From the NCBI GenBank assembly GCA_036679605.1, contig JAZDCZ010000262.1, forward strand, positions 1 to 12,687: a DNA stretch of 12,687 nucleotides. The letters are read 5' to 3'. This document shows, piece by piece, positions 2,791 to 12,263 of the stretch. The notes beneath the pieces are model-generated. The model worked only from the letters and a program-made list of their open reading frames with translations, was not told the DNA's origin and ran no database searches. Position 1 is the stretch's first letter; each line of letters opens with the position of its first letter. The stretch is from Gemmatimonadota bacterium (GTDB lineage Bacteria; Gemmatimonadota; Gemmatimonadetes; Gemmatimonadales; GWC2-71-9). The translations under genes and the position numbers were made by a program.

Positions 2791-3528
2791 CTATGCCACA
2801 CGCGGTCTGGCCCAGATCCAACCCTCTTTGACGGCCAGAGCGTGGTCTTCGGGAGCGAAGCAACTCCCGTCGAGGAAGTCGAAACCGGCCAGCACGCAGA
2901 TCGCTGCGTCCAGCACATGGTCGCTGGACACGAGCTGTGTGCACACGTCAGCATCGAACAGCATTCTTGAGGTGAGGTCCTTTGCGATCTCCGCTCGCTG
3001 CGACTCGCGCCCCGTTTTTTTGTACTGCTTCGAACGGAGTCCGTGGGCGGAAAGGGTGACGGTGGGGTAAACCTCGATCACGGAGGGATCTGTCACCATC
3101 GGTTCCCAGGCAAGCGGTATGGGCAATTCGGTCGCGGCTCGAAGTTCGCCGAGAAACTGAACTGCTGCATGCGCGGTGCGCGCAATGTGATCAGCCCCAA
3201 CATCAAGCGGTTGTCTGTCGAGCTTCTGTTTGATGACACGATCGGTCTCGCGGCGAAACATCTGATTTGCCGGCACTGCGATGGGTTGTCCCGCCGTGTG
3301 CTTATTGAGATTCGAACCGAGCGGCGCAGGCCAGCCTAGAGGTGCGTCAAGCGCAAGCAGGCAGGCATCTCCCAATGGCATCCATGACATGACCTTCTCA
3401 AGGACGGTGGAATGACTACCAAGCCGATCAACAGCCAGGAGCCTCCTAGGAGTCGATGTAGAAAATTCGCCTACTGCAAGGCCGATGTTCTTGGGGTCAG
3501 TCGCGCAATCGACTCCGATGACAATCAC
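2791..3528 (-). CDS. DUF429-family predicted RNase H-like nuclease (cassette 8)
   Basis: Motifs are IGVD (N-terminal), LALDAPLGWP, VIEVYP and DHVLDAAIC. The GTG start has a GAGGTGAG RBS and lies just after a GTTGCAC core. Confidence 0.75.
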   Translation of the reverse strand: MIVIGVDCATDPKNIGLAVGEFSTSTPRRLLAVDRLGSHSTVLEKVMSWMPLGDACLLALDAPLGWPAPLGSNLNKHTAGQPIAVPANQMFRRETDRVIKQKLDRQPLDVGADHIARTAHAAVQFLGELRAATELPIPLAWEPMVTDPSVIEVYPTVTLSAHGLRSKQYKKTGRESQRAEIAKDLTSRMLFDADVCTQLVSSDHVLDAAICVLAGFDFLDGSCFAPEDHALAVKEGWIWARPRVA

Positions 3529-3548
3529 CGCTCACCTCGGTTGTCTCG

Positions 3549-3610
3549 GTGCAACGTCTTTACGTTCAGCGGTGAGGCGAAGCCTCGTCGGCTGAAGCGC
3601 CTTCCCGGGT
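3549..3610 (-). mobile_element. attC site 7, with degenerate R'' box
   Basis: The minus strand reads ACCCGGG-AAGGCG-CTTCAGCCGACGAGGCTTCGCCTCACCGCTGAAC-GTAAAGAC-GTTGCAC. It has a typical attC L''/L' stem and an R' GTT, but the AAC of R'' is replaced by GGG. Confidence 0.7.
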
Positions 3611-4309
3611 CGCTCGTGGTTCCAGCATTCCAATCAGCTGGCGCAGGTTCCTAATTTGCCGATCAATATCCGCCGCACGTGGTGTCTCAGTGCCGTGCAC
3701 GAGGTTGTTTCGGAACGCGCGCAGAGAGTCCCACAGCGTCGCGGCCTCACTAGACACGCCTTCAAGGAATTCCTGTTTCCAATAGTATGTAAAGTCGTCC
3801 TTCGGTGGGAGAAGCGTGCGGAGGCTGCGGTCGAACCTCGTCCAGAGCTGCAAGAATTCGCCGGTCTTCGTGTGAATAACAGTTTTTTCGTTGACGTGGG
3901 GAACATCACCGAATAGATTCTCGAACAACGCCAAGGCGACCTGGAAGTATGCCTCTACTCGGGCGCGCTCCACGGTAACTCCGTTGCCAGAATGGTAAAG
4001 CTGATTTCGAAGCCGGTGATACCACTCGATGTCGCCCAGGTCGACGCCGGTCAACTTATCGGCGGCGTAACGATCCAGCATGTCCAGCAGGGCCGGGAAC
4101 GATTCGCTGGCTGCCTCTAGTTCCTGGCGGCCAGGTCCATTCGTGCCACGCGCTCGCTTCGGGAGACCCAGGTGGGTCTTGATCGTTAGCTCAACCGCGT
4201 TGTCGATGCTGACCATCGCGATACGTCGATCAAAGTCTTCGCCCAAGCCGAGATGGTCGGCTGCGTGTTGCAGTAGCTCTCGAGGGCCATCTGTCCAAGG
4301 TCCGCTCAT
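3566..4309 (-). CDS. Putative HEPN-domain protein with two RxxxxH motifs, 247 aa (cassette 7)
   Basis: The real start is probably ATG 4309 (MSGPWTDG, AGGA RBS, 11 nt after a GTTGGGA core). It has an N-terminal D..VE motif, RNQLYH and RNNLVH. Confidence 0.65.
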   Translation of the reverse strand: MSGPWTDGPRELLQHAADHLGLGEDFDRRIAMVSIDNAVELTIKTHLGLPKRARGTNGPGRQELEAASESFPALLDMLDRYAADKLTGVDLGDIEWYHRLRNQLYHSGNGVTVERARVEAYFQVALALFENLFGDVPHVNEKTVIHTKTGEFLQLWTRFDRSLRTLLPPKDDFTYYWKQEFLEGVSSEAATLWDSLRAFRNNLVHGTETPRAADIDRQIRNLRQLIGMLEPRATREGASADEASPHR

Positions 4310-4320
4310 TGTTCCTGTCT

Positions 4321-4398
4321 TCCCAACTGTCGAACTCCACCGGCCACTAGGGGGCGCAAACCGCCGAGTATCGGTCCGGTGGCGAGTTCCGGTTCGGC
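4321..4398 (-). mobile_element. attC site 6, overlapping the DUF5131 3' end
   Basis: The minus strand reads GCCGAAC-CGGAACTCG-CCACCGGACC...GGCCGGTGG-AGTTCGACA-GTTGGGA. Its R'' GCCGAAC is the exact complement of GTTCGGC at the start of this cassette (6015-6009). Confidence 0.75.
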
Positions 4399-5126
4399 CC
4401 GCCTTGCCACCGTGTCTTCGGCTTGGGCATCTCGCTCCATGTGACCCCATCCAAAACGCGACCACTCGGCTTCTTGCGAACACCACCCCATTGCTTGAAG
4501 AAGAACGGCACCTCGAGGTGTACACACTGATCACGGATCTGACGGACCCAAGAAACATCGACCGGCCGTGCGCCGGGGCCAGACTCACCACCGGCGATCA
4601 CCCAGTCGATGCCGGTGAGCGACAAAGACGGCAGAGCAGAGAGCAACGGTTCGAGCGACAGGAATCGAACCCCGGATGGAACACGCCGCAGCAGTTCGAT
4701 ACGTTCGTAGTACTCCTCGGTCTCTACACTGACCCCTGCCCAAATCTGTTCCGGCCACGGAAGGCGATCGGCAAGGGACAACAGTCGTTCTGGTCGTTTC
4801 GTCAGGATCTGGAAAGTATGCTGAGGCGCGGCGGCCATCGTCTTGAAGACGCTCTCGATGAACGACGTGGGTACGTGTTCATGGAAAAGGTCGCTCATCG
4901 AGTTCACAAAGATTAGCCTAGGCTTTCGCCATGACAACGGGGCGTCAAGAAGGTCTCGCTGAAGGGTCACCGTAAACCCATGTCGATACCTTGGTTGTCC
5001 CATTGCCTCTAGACGCTTAGCCATTCTTTCTGCATAGCAGTACTTGCAGCCTGGACTCACCTTCGTGCACCCGGTTACGGGATTCCACGTAGCCTCAGTC
5101 CACTCGATCGAGGATGTTTGAGCCAT
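4347..5126 (-). CDS. DUF5131 (phage Gp37/Gp68-like, radical-SAM-like three-Cys motif) protein (cassette 6)
   Basis: Motifs are [61 protein letters not shown] and PFFFKQWGG. Confidence 0.92.
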
Positions 5127-5135
5127 TCGGATTTC

Positions 5136-5990
5136 CTAGAAGAGGCTCCCCTGCGCGTTTGCGTACTTCGAGGCTTGTCTCCAGAAGCGCTCGCCAAGCG
5201 GATGCCGACTGAAAAAGGCTAGGCGGTAGAGAGGGAGATTCTTCTTGTAAGACCGTATCAGCTCCGTACGAGCGATGCCCTCGTATCTGTATCCCAACTC
5301 CGTCATCGAGGCACCGAAGCTGTCTGTCAGGAAGCGATCGAACGTAATCCGCTGAGCTTGTGCAGCGGACCAGTCGATCCGCCAGGGCCTACCGAGGAAG
5401 CGCTCTACGGTCTCGTCCGCTGGTTGCAGGTATACCTTGTCCACATTGCGAGTCGCATCCATTCCCGTCGGTATGAGGATAAGAAAATCGATGAAGCGCT
5501 CTGCGGCAAGTGTGCGGATCGTTTCGAAACGGAGGTCGCGCATTCTGAACGGATCGACTAAGCAGAATGTTAGTACTTTCTGGCTTCTGGAGGGCGGCGG
5601 TAGCTTGGAGAGAATCTCATCAGTATTTGTATTTGCGTCGCCGGGCACAAAGTGCACGTTAATATCAGTAGTGAAGGTGGCCATGCGCTGTTCGAGAGCG
5701 GCAAGCTTGCTCGATTCCTCTTCGCAGAAGACGTAACAGTCGAAGTGGTCTGGCACTCCCAACGCGACGAACGGTGAGCCCCAGGTCAGACGACCTGAGC
5801 CGCGGATTCTGGACACGCCTGGTCCCGCGAAGAGATCGAGATACGCCCGGCAATCCCACTTGCCTTTCATAGCCGTAGAAAACAACGCGGCGTATATGCC
5901 CACCAGCTTCAACTTGTCTTCTGTCCAAGGGCCGACCTCCGAAACGACGAGGTCGTCTGGTCGAGGCGGAGATGCCGAATCGACGAGCAT
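5136..5990 (-). CDS. tcmP: Three-Cys-motif partner protein TcmP, SAM-dependent methyltransferase fold (cassette 6)
   Basis: Motifs are GPWTEDKL, YLDLFAGPG, GSP, GDAN, FCLVDPF and YRLAFFSRHPLG. It lies immediately upstream of DUF5131, the usual partner arrangement. Confidence 0.85.
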   Translation of the reverse strand: MLVDSASPPRPDDLVVSEVGPWTEDKLKLVGIYAALFSTAMKGKWDCRAYLDLFAGPGVSRIRGSGRLTWGSPFVALGVPDHFDCYVFCEEESSKLAALEQRMATFTTDINVHFVPGDANTNTDEILSKLPPPSRSQKVLTFCLVDPFRMRDLRFETIRTLAAERFIDFLILIPTGMDATRNVDKVYLQPADETVERFLGRPWRIDWSAAQAQRITFDRFLTDSFGASMTELGYRYEGIARTELIRSYKKNLPLYRLAFFSRHPLGERFWRQASKYANAQGSLF

Positions 5991-6008
5991 TAGCTAGAAC
6001 TCAAAGCG

Positions 6009-6070
6009 GCCGAACTGCCTCGGCATCAGCTGCGGCAAGCAGCGCTGTCAGACGCATGCCGTTGATACTC
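6009..6070 (-). mobile_element. attC site 5, with degenerate R''
   Basis: The minus strand reads GAGTATC-AACGGCATGCGTCTGACAGCGCTGCTTGCCGCAGCTGATGCCGAGGCA-GTTCGGC. It is closely related to attC2 (shared AACGGCATGC...GCTGAT). Confidence 0.7.
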
Positions 6071-6136
6071 ATCAAGCCCTCCTCCCGTACCCACCCATTA
6101 GGCGGCGTTCGGCTCAGAAGCATCCACAGCACCATG

Positions 6137-6523
6137 CTACAGCGGCGGAGCAAAACGTATCCAGTCTGCTCCGAAGAATAAGATCGTCGGTATCACTGCG
6201 TGAACGCCATTGTTGACAAACTCCGTCTCGAACTGAAAACCCTGGTTGTGGAAACATACGAAGCGCACCCAGCGAGCCAGAATACTGCTGACAGTAGAAT
6301 CCGAGTACTCCGTTTCGCGGTCGAAGTAACCGCGCCAGTTCTGGAAATCCACGGTAGCCTGTACGGATTCTGTCGGCAGGCCAAATTTAACGCAACAGGA
6401 AGGTCGAACAATATGATCGACCGGGACAACCGGGCCATTAGCCACGCCCCAGAACTCTAGACTTCGTTCGTAGTCATGCTCAGCGCAATCCACAAATACC
6501 GTGATAAGTCGGCTTCGATGCAT
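6137..6523 (-). pseudogene. Probable chimeric remnant (cassette 5): N-terminal ~28 aa of a VOC/glyoxalase-like protein joined to unrelated sequence
   Basis: It has a strong RBS (GGAGGAG). MHRSRLITVFVDC...SLEFWG resembles the start of glyoxalase-like proteins, but the rest has no recognisable VOC motifs. It is flanked by damaged attC sites. Confidence 0.4.
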
Positions 6524-6549
6524 GGCTTCTCCTCCTAGTGTCCCTCTCC

Positions 6550-6576
6550 CGCGCCAGCAGCAGTGCCGTGTTAGAC
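6550..6576 (-). mobile_element. attC site 4, truncated (R'' and L''-like part only)
   Basis: The minus strand reads GTCTAAC-ACGGCA-CTGCTGCTGGCG. The gene's TAA stop lies within R''. No L'/R' half precedes the next RBS. Confidence 0.6.
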
Positions 6577-7332
6577 CGGGGGCCTCCCGCGCATGGGATT
6601 GAACCTGAGGCAGTCGTGATAGAACTCCGGAAGTCCGGAGTTGGCATCGTGCTCGTCAATGTGGCCGATGATACTTTCCCACGAAAGAAGATCTACCACG
6701 ATCGCTTCGAGCGTTGGAAGAAACGAGTCTTTGAACCAAGCATCGTGCGTTCCATCGTACTGAGCGACACGCGCCTTGACCTGGCTGCGGATTTTCTTCT
6801 TGGTAACAAAATCCTCGAAGACGCCGGATTGGATTTGTTGCTCGGGCGCCGCGACAAAGAACCCGAGCGAGTGGAGAGCCCTAGGCTGGATGCCAGCTAC
6901 CTGGACGACATGTGCAACGCAGGCGACGTTGCGAGCGGCCTGTCCATAACCGCTGGAGTTCTTGACCCCCTTGGAAAGGCGACTCCCGAGCTTTGCTTCA
7001 ATGACGACGAATTGCTCGGCGTCCTTGCGCAGGGTCGCCTCGCCGCTCTCGCCGGGAGAGATCTCGAAGTGCCCCATGACGCCGTCAGCATGGGTGAAGG
7101 ACTCGGCGAGCGTATCTGTGCGCCGAGTCGGCAAGAATTGGGAGGCAAGCAACGCCTCCGAGTACCAGCGTGCGCCCTTCTGAACAGCGAACGGATGACC
7201 TGTGGTACGTTCTCGCTCAAACCAGTCGAGTACTAGGCGGAGTAGCCAACCTTCGTTGTAGAGCTCGGTAGGTGGAAGCACTGTCGCCTCCGTCCCGCAT
7301 CTGAGCAGCAATTCGGCTACACGCTTCGACAT
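6571..7332 (-). CDS. Hypothetical PD-(D/E)XK nuclease-like protein, 253 aa (cassette 4)
   Basis: The likely start is ATG 7332 (MSKRVAELL, GGAG RBS, just after the GTCAGAC core). Motifs are NEGW, THADGVMG, VVIEAKLGS and YGQAARN. Confidence 0.6.
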   Translation of the reverse strand: MSKRVAELLLRCGTEATVLPPTELYNEGWLLRLVLDWFERERTTGHPFAVQKGARWYSEALLASQFLPTRRTDTLAESFTHADGVMGHFEISPGESGEATLRKDAEQFVVIEAKLGSRLSKGVKNSSGYGQAARNVACVAHVVQVAGIQPRALHSLGFFVAAPEQQIQSGVFEDFVTKKKIRSQVKARVAQYDGTHDAWFKDSFLPTLEAIVVDLLSWESIIGHIDEHDANSGLPEFYHDCLRFNPMRGRPPV

Positions 7333-7342
7333 TCGCTCCGCC

Positions 7343-7413
7343 GTCTGACGTTGAGCCCAGCTGCCGTTTTTGAACGCAGCGAAAAACCGGTCAGCTGGAA
7401 ACCGATGTGAGGT
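7343..7413 (-). mobile_element. attC site 3, both cores mutated (AAC>CAC, GTT>GTC)
   Basis: The minus strand reads ACCTCAC-ATCGGT-TTCCAGCTGACCGGTTTTTC...AAAAACGGCAGCTGGG-CTCAAC-GTCAGAC, with a long inverted repeat and a bulged A in L''. Confidence 0.8.
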
Positions 7414-7435
7414 GCGACCGCAGTCACTGCCACTT

Positions 7436-7936
7436 TCAATCCATGAATAGAGGAATGTGGGCAGCAATATCCTCATACGGCACATAACAATCAAACTTCA
7501 CCACATCAGACTGGTTGCGCTCATAGAATTCCTTTGGTGCTACCAGGACAGTCTGGAAGTCGGAGTAAGAACGGTATTTGGGGTCACCTAGCCATTGGCG
7601 TGCTCGATACGGATACATATCGGGTTGCAGAGGCTCGAATTTACCGTCCTTTTTCTTGTTTTCAATATGTAAGGCGAATGCTGATCCATCTTCAGCCTTA
7701 AAAACTACAAGAATATCGGTTTCAGATTCTCTGACTACAACCTCGTGTTCACCGGTAACCGGATTGATCCAATCCAGTTTTATCGGTCTCCATGGATGGT
7801 TCGAACGGGACCAATGGTAGCGACCTCCCGAGTTCGCAAACTTTGTCCTTCGAAGGAACCAGGAAACAAACTGAGGGGACTCCTTGAATGCTGCATCCAA
7901 GGCAAGATCGAGGTCCTTTTCGGTCGCTTCAGTCAC
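7436..7936 (-). CDS. PD-(D/E)XK superfamily nuclease-like protein, ~166 aa (second gene of cassette 3)
   Basis: The GTG start at 7936 (or 7939) overlaps the 3' end of the upstream ORF. Motifs are EKDLD, ETDILVVF, LHIENKK and QPDMY. Confidence 0.65.
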   Translation of the reverse strand: MTEATEKDLDLALDAAFKESPQFVSWFLRRTKFANSGGRYHWSRSNHPWRPIKLDWINPVTGEHEVVVRESETDILVVFKAEDGSAFALHIENKKKDGKFEPLQPDMYPYRARQWLGDPKYRSYSDFQTVLVAPKEFYERNQSDVVKFDCYVPYEDIAAHIPLFMD

Positions 7937-8684
7937 CACAAACCCTTGCAACCACTGGTGAGCCGGCGGTCCATAGACCGCGGCGAGAAAGGTCGGCAAG
8001 GAAGTCTCGGACGAACGATTCCGAGACCTCCGCGCTACCGGCCGACTGTCCGTTCAAATGGTCGCCTACCTGCTGCCAAGTGGCGAAGCCTACACGCAAC
8101 TCCGAGCAAAGCTCGCGGTAACCCCGCTCCAAGGATCTAGCCTCCCGATTGCGCGCGAGCTTCTCCGACAAAGGGGCCCGCGCGAGTGCGTTTGCGAGAA
8201 CCTCGCCATTCTCGGGCGCCTCACGTGCAGGAGACCAGTGTTGAGCGAAAGGCTTCCCGGTGATGTAGACCAGCGACGGCGCCTTCGGGTACGGATCGCT
8301 GGAAGCGAGCTTGGCATGCAAGAGCGCGTACTTCTGGGCCTGCTCGATCCTCGTCTTTGCCTGAACCTTCAGTTCAACGAAGACCCGCTCGCGGAGCGAT
8401 TCAAGCTGGACATCGGCCTGAGTGAAGCTCGCGTCCTGCGCGTTCTGAACGTCTAGGGGCGCTCCGCGCACTGCAACGGCGCCTGTCAGCGAGAGAAGTG
8501 ATCGAGTCGCTGCTGGGGGTAGAGCGTAAAGCAGGATGTTGAATAGGAAGTTCAAGGGCACTTCTTGCGATCGAATCTTGCGGTAGAAGGCCGTGGTGCC
8601 GGGACCAAGGTGCTGCGGCTCCCAGCGGTAGTGTTCGACATATCGATAAACAAACTCGGGCCAGCTGTTTCGGTCGATGGGCAT
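7929..8684 (-). CDS. PD-(D/E)XK superfamily nuclease-like protein, 251 aa (first gene of cassette 3)
   Basis: The ATG lies 8 nt after the GTTAGGT core. Motifs are QEVPLN, TQADVQL, VFVELKV, QAQKY (QxxxY) and a C-terminal ATWQQV. Confidence 0.65.
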   Translation of the reverse strand: MPIDRNSWPEFVYRYVEHYRWEPQHLGPGTTAFYRKIRSQEVPLNFLFNILLYALPPAATRSLLSLTGAVAVRGAPLDVQNAQDASFTQADVQLESLRERVFVELKVQAKTRIEQAQKYALLHAKLASSDPYPKAPSLVYITGKPFAQHWSPAREAPENGEVLANALARAPLSEKLARNREARSLERGYRELCSELRVGFATWQQVGDHLNGQSAGSAEVSESFVRDFLADLSRRGLWTAGSPVVARVCGD

Positions 8685-8692
8685 GCGCCGCT

Positions 8693-8752
8693 ACCTAACC
8701 GCTTACCGATCAGCGGCCGGCGTAGCCGGTCCGCTGCATGCCGTTGTTAGAC
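8693..8752 (-). mobile_element. attC site 2, canonical 60-bp element
   Basis: The minus strand reads GTCTAAC-AACGG-CATGCAGCGGACCGGC-TAC-GCCGGCCGCTGATC-GGTAAGCG-GTTAGGT. It has RYYYAAC/GTTRRRY cores, and the HAD stop codon TAA lies inside R''. Confidence 0.92.
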
Positions 8753-9403
8753 CGCCACACGCCCGATGACAAGTCCAACAAGATCGCGCCAACTAGTGAC
8801 AGTCATTTGGTGCGCGGTAGTTTCCTTCTTCCCTGCATCGAATCGGAGGAACTCGACCCCAGCAGCCATCGCCATCTGCCGATCAGTATCAGTATCGCCA
8901 ACCATCAGAGAGGAGTCAGCGTCAGCCTGGAGAGGCCCGCAAATCAGATTAACCAACATGTCGGGATACGGCTTGGGTCGAGGGGCATCCCGATCCGTTA
9001 CGATAGCAACGATACAATCCTGAAGACCTTCACGAGTCAGTACCCTGTCAACATGCTGGCGCTGCGCCGTAGTCGCTATCCCAATATGACACAGACCAGC
9101 CAACCTCCGGATGCCCTCAGCGGCGCCCGAAAAGAGGGGGACTTTTGCCAACTCTGATTCCCATCGTGTATCCTTGGCCGCGCGAAGCTTCCTCTTGACT
9201 TCCGGCAAAAGACCCAGACCCTCAAACATCCGATTGCCCGAGTAGCCGCGGTACAGATTCCTCACCAAAGCCTCTTCGACCGCGTGTGGTACCGCAACAT
9301 CGCGCGCTGCACCTCTCCAGGCTTTCTCCTGTAAGGCCATGGAATCCACGATTACCCCGTCGTAGTCCAGGGCGACTGCCACTAATCCGTTCTTCGAATT
9401 CAC
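8747..9403 (-). CDS. HAD-superfamily phosphatase, subfamily IA (cassette 2)
   Basis: Motif I is ALDYDGVIVDS, motif II IATT, motif III RPKPYPD and motif IV MVGDTDTD. The GTG start overlaps the upstream stop (GTGA). Confidence 0.9.
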   Translation of the reverse strand: MNSKNGLVAVALDYDGVIVDSMALQEKAWRGAARDVAVPHAVEEALVRNLYRGYSGNRMFEGLGLLPEVKRKLRAAKDTRWESELAKVPLFSGAAEGIRRLAGLCHIGIATTAQRQHVDRVLTREGLQDCIVAIVTDRDAPRPKPYPDMLVNLICGPLQADADSSLMVGDTDTDRQMAMAAGVEFLRFDAGKKETTAHQMTVTSWRDLVGLVIGRVAV

Positions 9404-10086
9404 ACTTTTCCGGACGGGTCCCTTTGAGGGGCATCATGCCACGGGAGGAGACCTCGCTTGTCGGAGTCGAGGACGCTAATGTCAACCGCAAATACTGACG
9501 AAGGAGACCGGATCAGGCAGAAGGTCCTATGATCGATCCCCAATTGGGAGAGGTATTCACTAGCCTTCTTGATCGTTCCTCCCGTGTGGACCTCAGGGGT
9601 GACGAGTAGCACCCGCTTACCCGTGATCGCACCGGTCACAGATGTGGCTCCCGGGAGCGCCTCGACGAGAGAGACATCTAGTCTTTTTCCTTCCCACTTG
9701 AATGTCCGATTGACTACATAGACCAGCGGCTCCTCTCCCCGTTTAGCTGCGAGCATCTTTGCGATCATTCCTGCGATAATCGCGCCGCCAGGACCAAGCC
9801 CAATCACTAGGTCTGGGCCGAATTGTACCAGGCGATCAATGTTGGTTTGAAGCAGCCACGCCAAGAGGGTCCAGCGAACCGGGCGTAGACCAAGGACGGC
9901 TATGGTCGGCAGCACAGAAAGGAGCAAGGTTATTATGACTGTTGTCGGGCCACCCTCCACACCCGCTGCACTCGCGAGCCCCCAGAGGACACCGAAGACG
10001 GAAGCGGTGATGACAAATGCGCTGCTTGCCGTAGCAAGCCCCCCGGAGAACAAGTGGTTGAGCAGGTTTGCAATCTGACGCGTCAC
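9400..10086 (-). CDS. Two-TM N-terminus fused to a type I phosphoribosyltransferase-like domain with a variant PRPP-binding loop (cassette 2)
   Basis: Hydrophobic segments are AFVITASVFGVLWGLASAAG and VIITLLLSVLPTIAVLGL. PRT-like motifs are PDLVIGLGPGGAIIAGMIA, GKRVLLVTPEVHTGGTI and LLPW. Confidence 0.75.
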   Translation of the reverse strand: MTRQIANLLNHLFSGGLATASSAFVITASVFGVLWGLASAAGVEGGPTTVIITLLLSVLPTIAVLGLRPVRWTLLAWLLQTNIDRLVQFGPDLVIGLGPGGAIIAGMIAKMLAAKRGEEPLVYVVNRTFKWEGKRLDVSLVEALPGATSVTGAITGKRVLLVTPEVHTGGTIKKASEYLSQLGIDHRTFCLIRSPSSVFAVDISVLDSDKRGLLPWHDAPQRDPSGKV

Positions 10087-10127
10087 TCCACGAACCTCTT
10101 TTTTCTGATCCCTGCAATTCGTTGGCG

Positions 10128-10245
10128 GTCTAACGTTCAGGTTCAGCCGCCCAAAATCCGACGCGGATTTCTTGGTAAAGTGACGCGCAGCGACACAAAA
10201 AAGCGTGTAGCGGGTTTTGGGTCGGCCTGGAACCGCTTGTTAGGC
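10128..10245 (-). mobile_element. attC site 1, canonical 118-bp element
   Basis: The minus strand reads GCCTAAC-AAGCG-GTTCCAGGCCGACCCAAAACCCG...CGGATTTTGGGCGGCTGAAC-CTGAAC-GTTAGAC, with perfect consensus cores and a long imperfect hairpin. Confidence 0.93.
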
Positions 10246-10259
10246 CCAAAACCCACTAC

Positions 10260-11069
10260 TTAGCCAATTCGCTGGCGGCAATTTGCCGCACCACATTTGC
10301 AATCAAATGGTTTCGTAAATTTACCCTCTAAGATTGTATAGTCGATCGTTATTTCTTCGCCCTTCTTCAGTGTGCGTTTCGCATAGAGCCATCGATCAGA
10401 AAACTCTGCGTTTGGGCTACATGAGTGGTTTAGATTCCTAAGCGGATCTCGTGGTTCAACGATCTTCCCATCAAACGTTAGGGAAAATGCAGTTGGTTCG
10501 TTGACATACCTGCCTTCAAAATAGTGAATAATCTCAGATTCAAAAAAGTCCTTATCCGCGAGTACGCCGCTCCCATGTATCTGTTGACTAGTATTTACGA
10601 GCACTCTATTTCTTAACTCCACACAACCTTGGCGAATCCATACGTAACTATCAGCATTCGGCCGCTGTAAATCATCATCCATCCAGGAATAAAAGCCCTT
10701 AAGTATTTCTACTTTGTCCTTACCACCTCCCGATAACGTAAAACTGCCTCGATCTTTTCGATGTTCCGATGTTGCTGGTTCGTATATTGCTGCAAATACA
10801 TTTGCTTGTACTCTTCCGGTACATTTATAAACAATGCCGCCGTTCTTTTCTCCGTATTCTACAAACGCTGAAACTTTGCGCCCGAGCTGCCACAAATGCA
10901 CTGTTTCTTCGTGCAATCTACCTTCTTTAGCGAAATATGTCGTCCATGTTCCATTTAAGTCCTCTACAGGCATCCAGACTCGACGAACAACGCTGGCTAT
11001 TGCCTTTTGTAATTTCCAAAGGCGATAAGCCGCGCCCAGTGATTTAAGGGTAATTGAGTCTGACATCAT
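10260..11069 (-). CDS. SET + post-SET domain protein with an N-terminal beta-strand-rich (Cap15/S-2TMbeta-like) domain (cassette 1)
   Basis: SET motifs are IHGSGVLA, NLNHSCSPN and GEEITIDY, and the post-SET motif is CKCGAANC. The N-terminus has DLNGTW...DRGSFTL...LKGFYSW. It has a GAGGA RBS and is visibly AT-richer than its flanks. Confidence 0.8.
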   Translation of the reverse strand: MMSDSITLKSLGAAYRLWKLQKAIASVVRRVWMPVEDLNGTWTTYFAKEGRLHEETVHLWQLGRKVSAFVEYGEKNGGIVYKCTGRVQANVFAAIYEPATSEHRKDRGSFTLSGGGKDKVEILKGFYSWMDDDLQRPNADSYVWIRQGCVELRNRVLVNTSQQIHGSGVLADKDFFESEIIHYFEGRYVNEPTAFSLTFDGKIVEPRDPLRNLNHSCSPNAEFSDRWLYAKRTLKKGEEITIDYTILEGKFTKPFDCKCGAANCRQRIG

Positions 11070-11109
11070 GGTCCTCGTGGGTAATGACCTTTTCGATATG
11101 AATCATTGC

Positions 11110-11135
11110 GCCTAACCAAGTTCTGATCCGTCCCG
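11110..11135 (-). mobile_element. Putative attI site (core GTTAGGC at 11116-11110)
   Basis: The minus strand reads CGGGACGGATCAGAACTTG-GTTAGGC. It lies between the first cassette and the divergent intI remnant and has no attC-type hairpin. The core is complementary to the attC1 R'' GCCTAAC. Confidence 0.7.
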
Positions 11136-11232
11136 GCTCCGGTTATCACACGCATTGTCTCGGACCGGCGACACAAACCTGTCTATACTCCAACAACTTG
11201 GCTTGGCGCAAGGCAAGGGTGCTGAAGATGAT

Positions 11233-11516: not shown

Positions 11517-11520
11517 AAGG

Positions 11521-11593
<73 letters not shown>

Positions 11594-11679: not shown

Positions 11680-12066
11680 TTAGCCGACGAGCACCAGCTC
11701 GAGCCCTACGCGCTTCATCGTCCCGAAGTCGGAGTCACGAGAGAGAATCGGCACTCCGTGTGCGAGAGCGTAGGCCGCGATCAAAAGATCCAGCGATTTG
11801 ACCGTCGAGCCACGCCGTCCGAGATAGGAACCGAGATCTCCCGCTTCGTTCCACAGCGCGGACGGCTGTTCAAGGTTGTGACAGCCGTCCAGGAGGGGCA
11901 GTACCTTGGTCCGATCCTTACGAGATCGCAATCCGCGGCGCAGCTCGGTGACCACAGGCCCACACAAGGCGACTTCGTTCGTCTCGAGCAAGTCCGCCAC
12001 GATTCCGGCGAGTGGTTCCCGCCCGCGGAAGAAGTCGATCCAGGCGGAGGTGTCGACCAGAATCAT
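11680..12066 (-). CDS. vapC: PIN-domain toxin VapC
   Basis: Motifs are MILVDTSAWI, VVTEL.RG, SLDLLIAA and SRDSDF. It overlaps the antitoxin stop (ATGA). Confidence 0.93.
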   Translation of the reverse strand: MILVDTSAWIDFFRGREPLAGIVADLLETNEVALCGPVVTELRRGLRSRKDRTKVLPLLDGCHNLEQPSALWNEAGDLGSYLGRRGSTVKSLDLLIAAYALAHGVPILSRDSDFGTMKRVGLELVLVG

Positions 12067-12263
12067 CGCCGCGTTTTGCCGAGGTCGAGTTCGAAACGCA
12101 CCTTTCCACGAAGCGCTCGGAGCGCGGAGCGTTTGTCACTGCGCTCTATCTCCTTCAGGCCGGCAACAATGGTCGGTGTGATGCCGAGTCCCGTTATACG
12201 GGTGGCTTTCTCCAGCACGCGCTTCGGAACATTGACGGTTATCTTCTTGATCGGTTCTCCCAT
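12063..12263 (-). CDS. vapB: VapB-type antitoxin, ribbon-helix-helix-like
   Basis: It is a 66-aa basic ORF (KITVNVPKRVLEKA...LRGKVRFELDL) coupled upstream of vapC. Confidence 0.85.
   Translation of the reverse strand: MGEPIKKITVNVPKRVLEKATRITGLGITPTIVAGLKEIERSDKRSALRALRGKVRFELDLGKTRR

Follow-up and report, generated by a model that had tools for sequence, protein, structure and literature searches.

An integron cassette pairing a two-helix membrane pseudo-PRTase with a HAD phosphatase: a candidate nucleotide-gated defence system

Analysis of an integron cassette from a Gemmatimonadota bacterium (assembly GCA_036679605.1) has identified two coupled genes that encode a PRT-fold protein with two membrane (TM) helices, in which the acid pair of the PRPP loop is lost, and a HAD phosphatase with intact catalytic motifs. 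We propose that these proteins constitute a nucleotide-gated membrane defence effector and a signal-clearing phosphatase that operate by a logic like that of Metis, a reading for which we see the chances as evenly balanced; that the pair has an anti-phage role of one kind or another is quite probable. According to this proposal, a nucleoside 5'-monophosphate accumulating during infection would be bound by the PRT domain without being turned over. Ligand binding would drive the membrane helices, with membrane damage and abortive infection as the outcome, while the HAD, in the manner of an antitoxin, would keep basal ligand low by clearing it. Both the membrane damage by the TM-PRT protein and the antitoxin role of the HAD are postulated.

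The two genes form a single integron cassette

The host assembly comprises 6.7 Mb in 434 contigs, one of which (JAZDCZ010000262.1) carries the two-gene cassette; the window is the whole stretch of 12,687 nucleotides of this contig that was analysed. Two minus-strand open reading frames, the TM-PRT gene at 10086-9400 (228 aa) and the HAD gene at 9403-8747 (218 aa), lie where they had been predicted and are coupled, as was also predicted, by a GTGA start/stop overlap at 9403-9400 on the minus strand, an overlap that recurs in one locus outside this genome (L010, described below). The whole cassette occupies 8699-10134 on the minus strand (about 1.4 kb), and its start (10134-10123) is a perfect 12-nt complement of the R'' end (8757-8746). 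The upstream attC (10128-10245, minus strand), which belongs to the adjoining SET-gene cassette, has canonical boxes and a hairpin z of -2.5, and its R' core GTTAGAC is the opening of the two-gene cassette. The cassette's own, downstream attC (8693-8752, minus strand; z -2.4) has the R'' box GTCTAAC, within which the stop codon of the HAD gene is located. Spans of the form RYYYAAC...GTTRRRY occur just twice in the whole window, and both flank the TM-PRT/HAD pair. In a strict box test the upstream attC passed (200 approximate dinucleotide shuffles gave a mean of 0.01, with 2/200 as high), while the downstream attC failed, its gap before R' being 9 nt as opposed to 7 nt in the upstream site. Because the cassette ends are complementary over 12 nt, the HAD stop codon falls in R'' and, in run X1 (possibly the source of the window), the neighbouring cassette is also present behind another attC with the same core, we conclude that the TM-PRT/HAD unit is a real integron cassette with a slightly irregular attC of its own. 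The original prediction of one cassette with intact attC sites thus stands as regards the cassette, which has complementary ends and an attC on each side, and as regards the upstream site, but the downstream site cannot be called intact by the box test.

The cassette array begins below a tRNA-Phe gene, which was the sole match in an Rfam scan of the window. An integron integrase is absent from the cassette's contig, and two that exceed the cut-off are present on other contigs of the assembly. No excision joint was found in the contigs of run X1, and a promoter scan of the window performed at chance level (2 vs 2.0). Integron cassettes often encode defence functions, and about one-third of those described have TM helices, according to the available portion of a recent preprint (10.1101/2024.07.02.601719).

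Several other genes of the window are of interest in their own right. Matches to PADLOC candidates were obtained for 3 of the 11 neighbouring proteins scanned (PDC-M41A/B and PDC-S44, E <1e-9). The first two belong to a DUF5131 gene and its partner at 4347-5990 (minus strand), and the third to a DUF429 protein; the genes at 2791-3528 and 3566-4309 (minus strand) encode this DUF429 protein and a protein with weak HEPN-like matches. The adjoining cassette (10260-11069, minus strand, 44% GC) encodes a protein with a C-terminal SET domain (PF00856, E 6e-9) and an N-terminal part of about 150 aa that has no Pfam match, and is itself a possible defence gene. On the other side, four ORFs at 6137-8684 (minus strand; 128, 307, 187 and 251 aa) gave no notable match in Pfam, NCBIfam or PADLOC, and run X1 contains the next cassette, at 8301-8684, in a second and slightly divergent copy that stands behind another attC with the same core. 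Weak attC-like hairpins occur near 5985-6075 and 3540-3610. The start of the array (11100-11220 and 11519-11593), which is 300 nt below the tRNA-Phe, has a stable hairpin (z -3.2) that ends in a GTTAGGC core and may be a degenerate attC or attI-like. The window additionally contains a PIN-domain gene with a small upstream gene (11680-12263, minus strand), vapBC-like, and at 1-2706 on the plus strand the end of a methylase gene and a specificity subunit with duplicated halves, which on the basis of their translations we take to be type I R-M-like.

The TM-PRT protein retains a phosphate pocket and lacks the acid pair

In PRTases the acid pair of the PRPP loop holds Mg and the ribose hydroxyls, and a later Asp serves as the catalytic base. 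The 228-aa protein encoded at 9400-10086 (minus strand) is a 2-TM pseudo-PRTase in which helices at residues ~16-40 and ~47-65 precede a type I PRT fold at ~70-220 that matches PF00156 with an E-value of 2.9e-8, over the cut-off. The two hydrophobic N-terminal helices that had been noticed earlier are recovered both by a scan for hydrophobic 19-mers, which start at residues 23 (KD 1.9) and 49 (KD 2.4), and by an AF2 model (pLDDT 91) with helices at 16-40 and 47-65. The structure prediction that had been recommended as a check also bore out the PRT fold, as the best structural matches of the model are purine PRTases (4z1o, Z 17.0, rmsd 2.2, 137 aligned; 1vdm, Z 16.8, rmsd 2.9, 142 aligned), and an Atlas search with the TM-PRT protein returned only PRT clusters, under 0.9. 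The PRPP, PPi and flexible loops of the fold (loop architecture as in the available text of PMC7326950) are all present, with a PPi loop GLGPGG at 96-101, a PRPP loop TPEVHTGGT at 163-171 and a C-terminal RGLLPW hood at 211-216. The loop reads VLLVTPEVHTGGT as compared with VVIVDDVSDTGKT in 1vdm, which places the acid pair at residues 163-164.

A homologue search of 1.84 billion representatives returned 104 hits, 33 of them with E <1e-10, and alignment A2 (36 rows) was made from the query, three closer homologues and 32 of these 33, P0037 having been moved to group B. An acid at 163 or 164 is present in 0/36 rows, so the predicted loss of the acidic pair, evident from the comparison with 1vdm, extends to the family as a whole. 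In contrast, 8/8 of the other PF00156 proteins of the host with a readable loop (13 matches overall) have the first acid and 7/8 have both. Residues that are conserved in A2 include E165 (35/36), R127 (35/36), G169 (34/36), T171 (32/36), H167 (31/36; Asp in 1vdm) and R211 (31/36; Trp in 1vdm), and the position of the PPi-loop Arg is occupied by Pro in 23 and by Arg in 7 of the 33 rows that have a residue there. Two hydrophobic N-terminal segments are found in 24 of the 28 full-length family rows and one in the remaining 4.

Since the acid pair is gone but a Glu persists at a shifted position, His mostly stands in for the following Asp and the 5'-phosphate loop survives, the TM-PRT protein is likely a binder rather than a canonical enzyme, with the chemistry probably lost and the phosphate-and-base pocket retained under selection. 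The PRPP loop binds ribose-5-phosphate and PRT domains can bind monophosphate nucleotides, and the fold is used for regulation in PyrR and PurR, as stated in the accessible part of PMC9005727. As the protein retains the phosphate loop and the hood but has neither the ribose/Mg acids nor, mostly, the PPi arginine, the ligand is most likely a purine monophosphate, possibly deoxy or modified; here we infer from residue conservation.

The protein is also predicted to self-associate via its PRT core. A four-copy model, the largest that fits, gave an ipSAE of 0.65 as compared to 0.00 for the best control, a mark that 20/30 solved pairs and 1/23 single chains reach, although the score may owe something to the resemblance of the listed interface, which lies in the PRT core, to PRT dimers of solved structure. 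The runs shared at least 52% of contacts with a pLDDT of at least 66, and no confident TM contacts were listed.

A dedicated HAD phosphatase with an invariant cap

The second gene (8747-9403, minus strand) encodes a 218-aa HAD phosphatase with a helical cap that matches PF13419 at E 5.4e-20, over the cut-off. The four catalytic motifs claimed for it are confirmed by D13/D15, T111/T112, K144 and G169-D170-D174. A profile search recovered 21 proteins with E <1e-20, and among the 20 that were aligned all catalytic residues are invariant, as are W29, G53, R74, K77 and W81 of the cap. The cassette HAD sits in a small dedicated clade, and the invariance of catalytic and cap residues suggests one specific substrate. 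Its solved structural neighbours are generic small-molecule phosphatases, including AlnB, and give no hint as to the substrate.

The pair recurs at mobile and scattered loci

Four loci outside the host genome were read (L008, L009, L010 and L011). In three of the four (L008, L009 and L010) the HAD gene lies directly downstream of the PRT gene, overlapping it or at most 1 nt away, which supports the conserved pairing that had been anticipated; the exception is L011, from a Bryobacteraceae record, where a solo PRT gene (53% GC in surroundings of 60-62%) occurs in a genome in which the clade HAD was not found (best 78 bits vs 255). The pair in L010, from a Phycisphaerales record, has a GC content of 51% as opposed to 65-67% around it and is the sole content between lysS and a repeat of ~110 bp of the lysS 3' end (duplicates at 5780-5891 and 7405-7515), forming a minimal island that does not contain an integrase gene. 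It is, therefore, an integrated island without other cargo. The flanks of the outside loci are housekeeping genes (lysS/dnaX, a 2-oxoacid dehydrogenase E2 gene/ompH, a zwf fragment and a glycosyltransferase), known defence genes are absent from these four sets of flanks, and no attC-like span was found in L008-L011. None of the four (0/4) lies in a purine-salvage operon, the context that the original prediction had named as speaking against a defence function. As a separate observation, a fragment of a glucose-6-phosphate dehydrogenase gene at 1-304 of L008 breaks off just upstream of the pair, which is possibly another insertion scar.

Comparison of contig sizes between 42 PRT and 20 HAD records yielded 6 exact matches, comprising L008, L009 and 4 new ones, where a jittered null (20,000 draws) had a mean of 0.15 and a maximum of 3. 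From the identical sizes we infer four additional PRT + HAD pairs. Identities of PRT and HAD co-vary across 8 pairs (rho 0.69; 33/10,080 permutations), which shows co-inheritance only and not function. By the same size comparison alone, 11 family records on contigs >3.6 kb are without a HAD match.

The family has a very patchy spread across unrelated phyla. It was found in 1/401 genomes in each of two phylum samples, both times in the seed genome, and the second, weak match in the host-phylum sample (L013) proved to be a PRT that is soluble and has a DE pair. A single-protein pattern scan of metagenome contigs gave 175 candidates, 0 of which were related. Viral contigs contained no family member, no group B member and one generic HAD, and tblastn against plasmids and phages gave no PRT match and generic HADs of no more than 35% identity among the matches listed.

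Distant relatives carry other partner domains

In the wider set of homologues, the xxE loop is present in 74 of 103 aligned hits, and a hydrophobic segment in 51 of the 59 hits that have an N-terminus of at least 45 aa. In a second 2-TM PRT-like group, group B, the Glu too is missing and the PRPP loop is fully eroded; the members are P0037, P0043, P0054, P0067, P0070, P0076, P0078, P0081 and P0083. Three scanned group B proteins gave no Pfam match, and a search for group B in a 401-genome phylum sample found nothing beyond the seed genome's own family member. Both group B and the other distant group align to A2 at 99.9% probability. In a quick tree of 98 rows, from which 10 short or spurious rows had been dropped, the 2-TM groups stand apart from the rest with a support of 100, and a single origin of the xxE loop is left undecided by this tree. 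When a group C profile was run against 301 genomes, it recovered the seed, two ordinary PRTs and a 1-TM PRT in one genome, where the neighbouring genes that were read do not include a phosphatase.

A Pfam scan of 26 chosen hits identified, in distant relatives with the same motif, fusions of the PRT to His_Phos_1 (7) and EAD11 (1, E 3.5e-10), together with a weak DUF4062 match in 1/26 (P0097) that falls below the cut-off (E 1.3e-4, 22.5 vs 24.7 bits). These xxE PRT fusions are P0063, P0069, P0071, P0074, P0088, P0090, P0101, P0086 and P0097, and any of them could be a defence system of a single gene. In the available text of 10.64898/2026.09.04.749371, DUF4062 is described as an NADase with a role in defence. 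The presence of a second unrelated phosphatase and of non-TM fusion partners is suggestive of a modular sensor, albeit in distant proteins. A broader proposal, tentative and in our view somewhat doubtful, is that the xxE pseudo-PRTase is an unrecognised immune nucleotide sensor, for which TM hairpins, a DUF4062 NADase and EAD11 serve as exchangeable partners and two unrelated phosphatases, HAD and histidine, would have been recruited independently as signal erasers, the signal being a danger nucleotide other than m6dAMP.

Alternative explanations and significance

That the cassette is not a defence system at all, but a mobile module for detoxification, resistance or sensing (directed for example at a base or nucleoside analogue), is an explanation that we consider unlikely. 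The PRT would then be anchored in the membrane as a binder or regulator, with removal of a toxic monophosphate as the task of the HAD. Integron cassettes carry many non-defence functions, and the absence of known defence neighbours at the outside loci, the lack of a PADLOC match and the generic small-molecule phosphatases (AlnB included) among the structural neighbours of the HAD would all fit such a module. It is harder to reconcile with the very patchy occurrence (1/401 genomes per phylum sample) across unrelated phyla, with relatives fused to EAD11 and, weakly, to DUF4062, with candidate defence genes in the same array, and with the lack of an attached transporter or regulator domain.

A second explanation, likewise unlikely in our estimation, keeps the defence role and has the TM-PRT protein as a membrane-tethered, non-canonical but active PRTase that together with the HAD drains PRPP or nucleotides in two steps (from base + PRPP via nucleotide to nucleoside, or in the opposite direction), both enzymes being needed. 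E165 (35/36), R127 (35/36) and H167 (31/36) are conserved as they would be in an active site, and a catalytic role for E165 and H167 is conceivable; ShosT and similar defence PRTases are also described, in the accessible portion of the literature on them, as disturbing purine metabolism. Additionally, in PUA-Cal-HAD (Metis type I) the HAD is essential and part of a dNTP sink according to the available part of a preprint (10.64898/2026.01.15.699771), so the role of the HAD is contested even within the Metis precedent. Against a drain stand the missing acid pair, the absence of the PPi arginine in most rows, the related 2-TM group B that has given up the Glu too while keeping its TM part, the solo PRT copy in L011, and the conserved TM helices, which a drain does not need.

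Signal-loss guard systems exist, and together with a dedicated, co-varying HAD with invariant cap residues they lend something to a third possibility, that the HAD makes the ligand (for instance NMP from NDP or NTP, or ribose-5-phosphate from PRPP), which would act as an alarm or would be present constantly as an inhibitory signal, the effector being freed when it disappears, but this is improbable given that L011 tolerates a solo PRT gene, contrary to an obligatory inhibitory signal, and that the phosphatase is dispensable in both of the closest precedents, type II Metis and Vesta.

We consequently retain a nucleotide-gated membrane effector with a ligand-clearing HAD as the best explanation, while the solo PRT gene of L011, the PRT records on longer contigs that lack a HAD match and the housekeeping flanks of the outside loci count against this reading also. 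If it is true, the PRT fold joins the list of immune receptors, and a role is provided for a broader group of TM-PRT proteins and PRT-phosphatase fusions that are today annotated as salvage enzymes. The system lends itself to analysis: the 1.4-kb cassette is compact and suited to direct tests in E. coli, there are many solved PRT-nucleotide structures with which the pocket of the TM-PRT protein can be compared, and the dedicated HAD offers an easy way to the ligand through its substrate.

Comparison with known systems

The expectation that this pair is not a named system holds in that neither protein matched any PADLOC model. No description of a TM-PRTase + HAD system was found in the literature searched, which covered few subscription papers, and the sensor fold was not found in the defence libraries and papers searched. 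PADLOC likewise gave no match with the 36 family rows except for mad8 at E 0.06. The PRT sensor domain is probably new. Membership of CBASS or Thoeris was rejected, as a Pfam scan found no CD-NTase or TIR synthase in the cassette or among 13 window proteins.

The TM-PRT protein shares with purine PRTases (1vdm, S. solfataricus HGXPRT, XGPRT) and with non-catalytic PRT binders the fold, the 5'-phosphate loop TGxT, the C-terminal PW hood and a predicted dimer via the core. It differs from them in having other residues in place of the acid pair, of the Asp that follows and, in most rows, of the PPi Arg, in its N-terminal TM hairpin, and in being mobile and paired with a HAD. A housekeeping purine salvage PRTase was rejected given the absence of the acid pair (0/36), the TM segments, the cassette and island contexts and the occurrence in 1/401 genomes. 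PyrR, PurR and ComFC provide precedents, in the source text available, for PRT folds co-opted as non-catalytic binders. PRT domains also occur in anti-phage systems such as ShosT/PsyrT, the retron type III effectors, Ophion OpnC and DS-32A, but in the accessible parts of the sources (10.1101/2025.09.30.679545, PMC9122126, PMC13092281 and its preprint) the known defence PRTases pair with DprA, RT, rSAM+PHP or NADAR, whereas here the partner is a HAD. ShosTA, PsyrTA, retron III, Ophion and DS-32 were rejected as assignments because there is no PADLOC PRTase match and a HAD partner instead; Ophion and DS-32 are newer than the PADLOC copy used and were set apart by their descriptions.

Vesta consists of a NIR/DUF4062 NADase with a putative ligand-binding domain and an alkaline phosphatase (bioRxiv 10.64898/2026.09.04.749371, available text). 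The cassette resembles it in combining an effector with a phosphatase, which is dispensable in Vesta, itself a system triggered by degradation of the host genome, and in the weak DUF4062 of the distant relative P0097. It differs in its TM effector and in having a HAD as its phosphatase, and the accessible part of the Vesta paper names no PRTase (0 occurrences).

The closest logic is that of type II Metis (MisC + MisB), the 'Hydrolase + 3TM' of Rousset 2022, in which a TM protein senses m6dAMP and a PF13419 HAD that is dispensable for defence clears basal m6dAMP (bioRxiv 10.1101/2025.11.05.686725). Each is a two-gene operon in which a PF13419 HAD accompanies a TM protein with an intracellular pocket for a nucleotide, a predicted one in the cassette. 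MisC, however, has 3 TM and no annotated domain, whereas the cassette protein has 2 TM and a PF00156 PRT fold. Type II Metis forms an octameric membrane ring; our model of four copies, with its confident interface in the PRT core and no TM contact listed, speaks neither for nor against such a ring here. MisB has the motif DxDx(T/N) and the cassette HAD has DxDG, the two being set apart by this motif and by PADLOC model rather than by direct alignment. The PADLOC 'Hydrolase' model, which we take to be the HAD of Hydrolase + 3TM, did not match the cassette HAD, matched 9/20 of its relatives weakly (best E 2.7e-5), and had no match anywhere in 201 genomes, controls included. As MisC was called by TM content in Table S1 of the Metis preprint, such TM-PRT proteins might be included there. 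The host has two PF02086 adenine-methylase matches, which allow for an m6dAMP signal and no more. The original prediction had the HAD either generating or removing the ligand, and of these removal is favoured because the type II Metis HAD removes the activating nucleotide, a precedent that the prediction had not cited. The Metis preprint further predicts systems that sense other nucleotides freed by phage degradation of host DNA (10.1101/2025.11.05.686725), and the cassette pair is a concrete candidate for such a system, with a different sensor fold drawn from a repurposed salvage enzyme. Thus, type II Metis is the nearest known system in its logic, yet the cassette pair is not a member of it, as both the sensor fold and the HAD subfamily differ.
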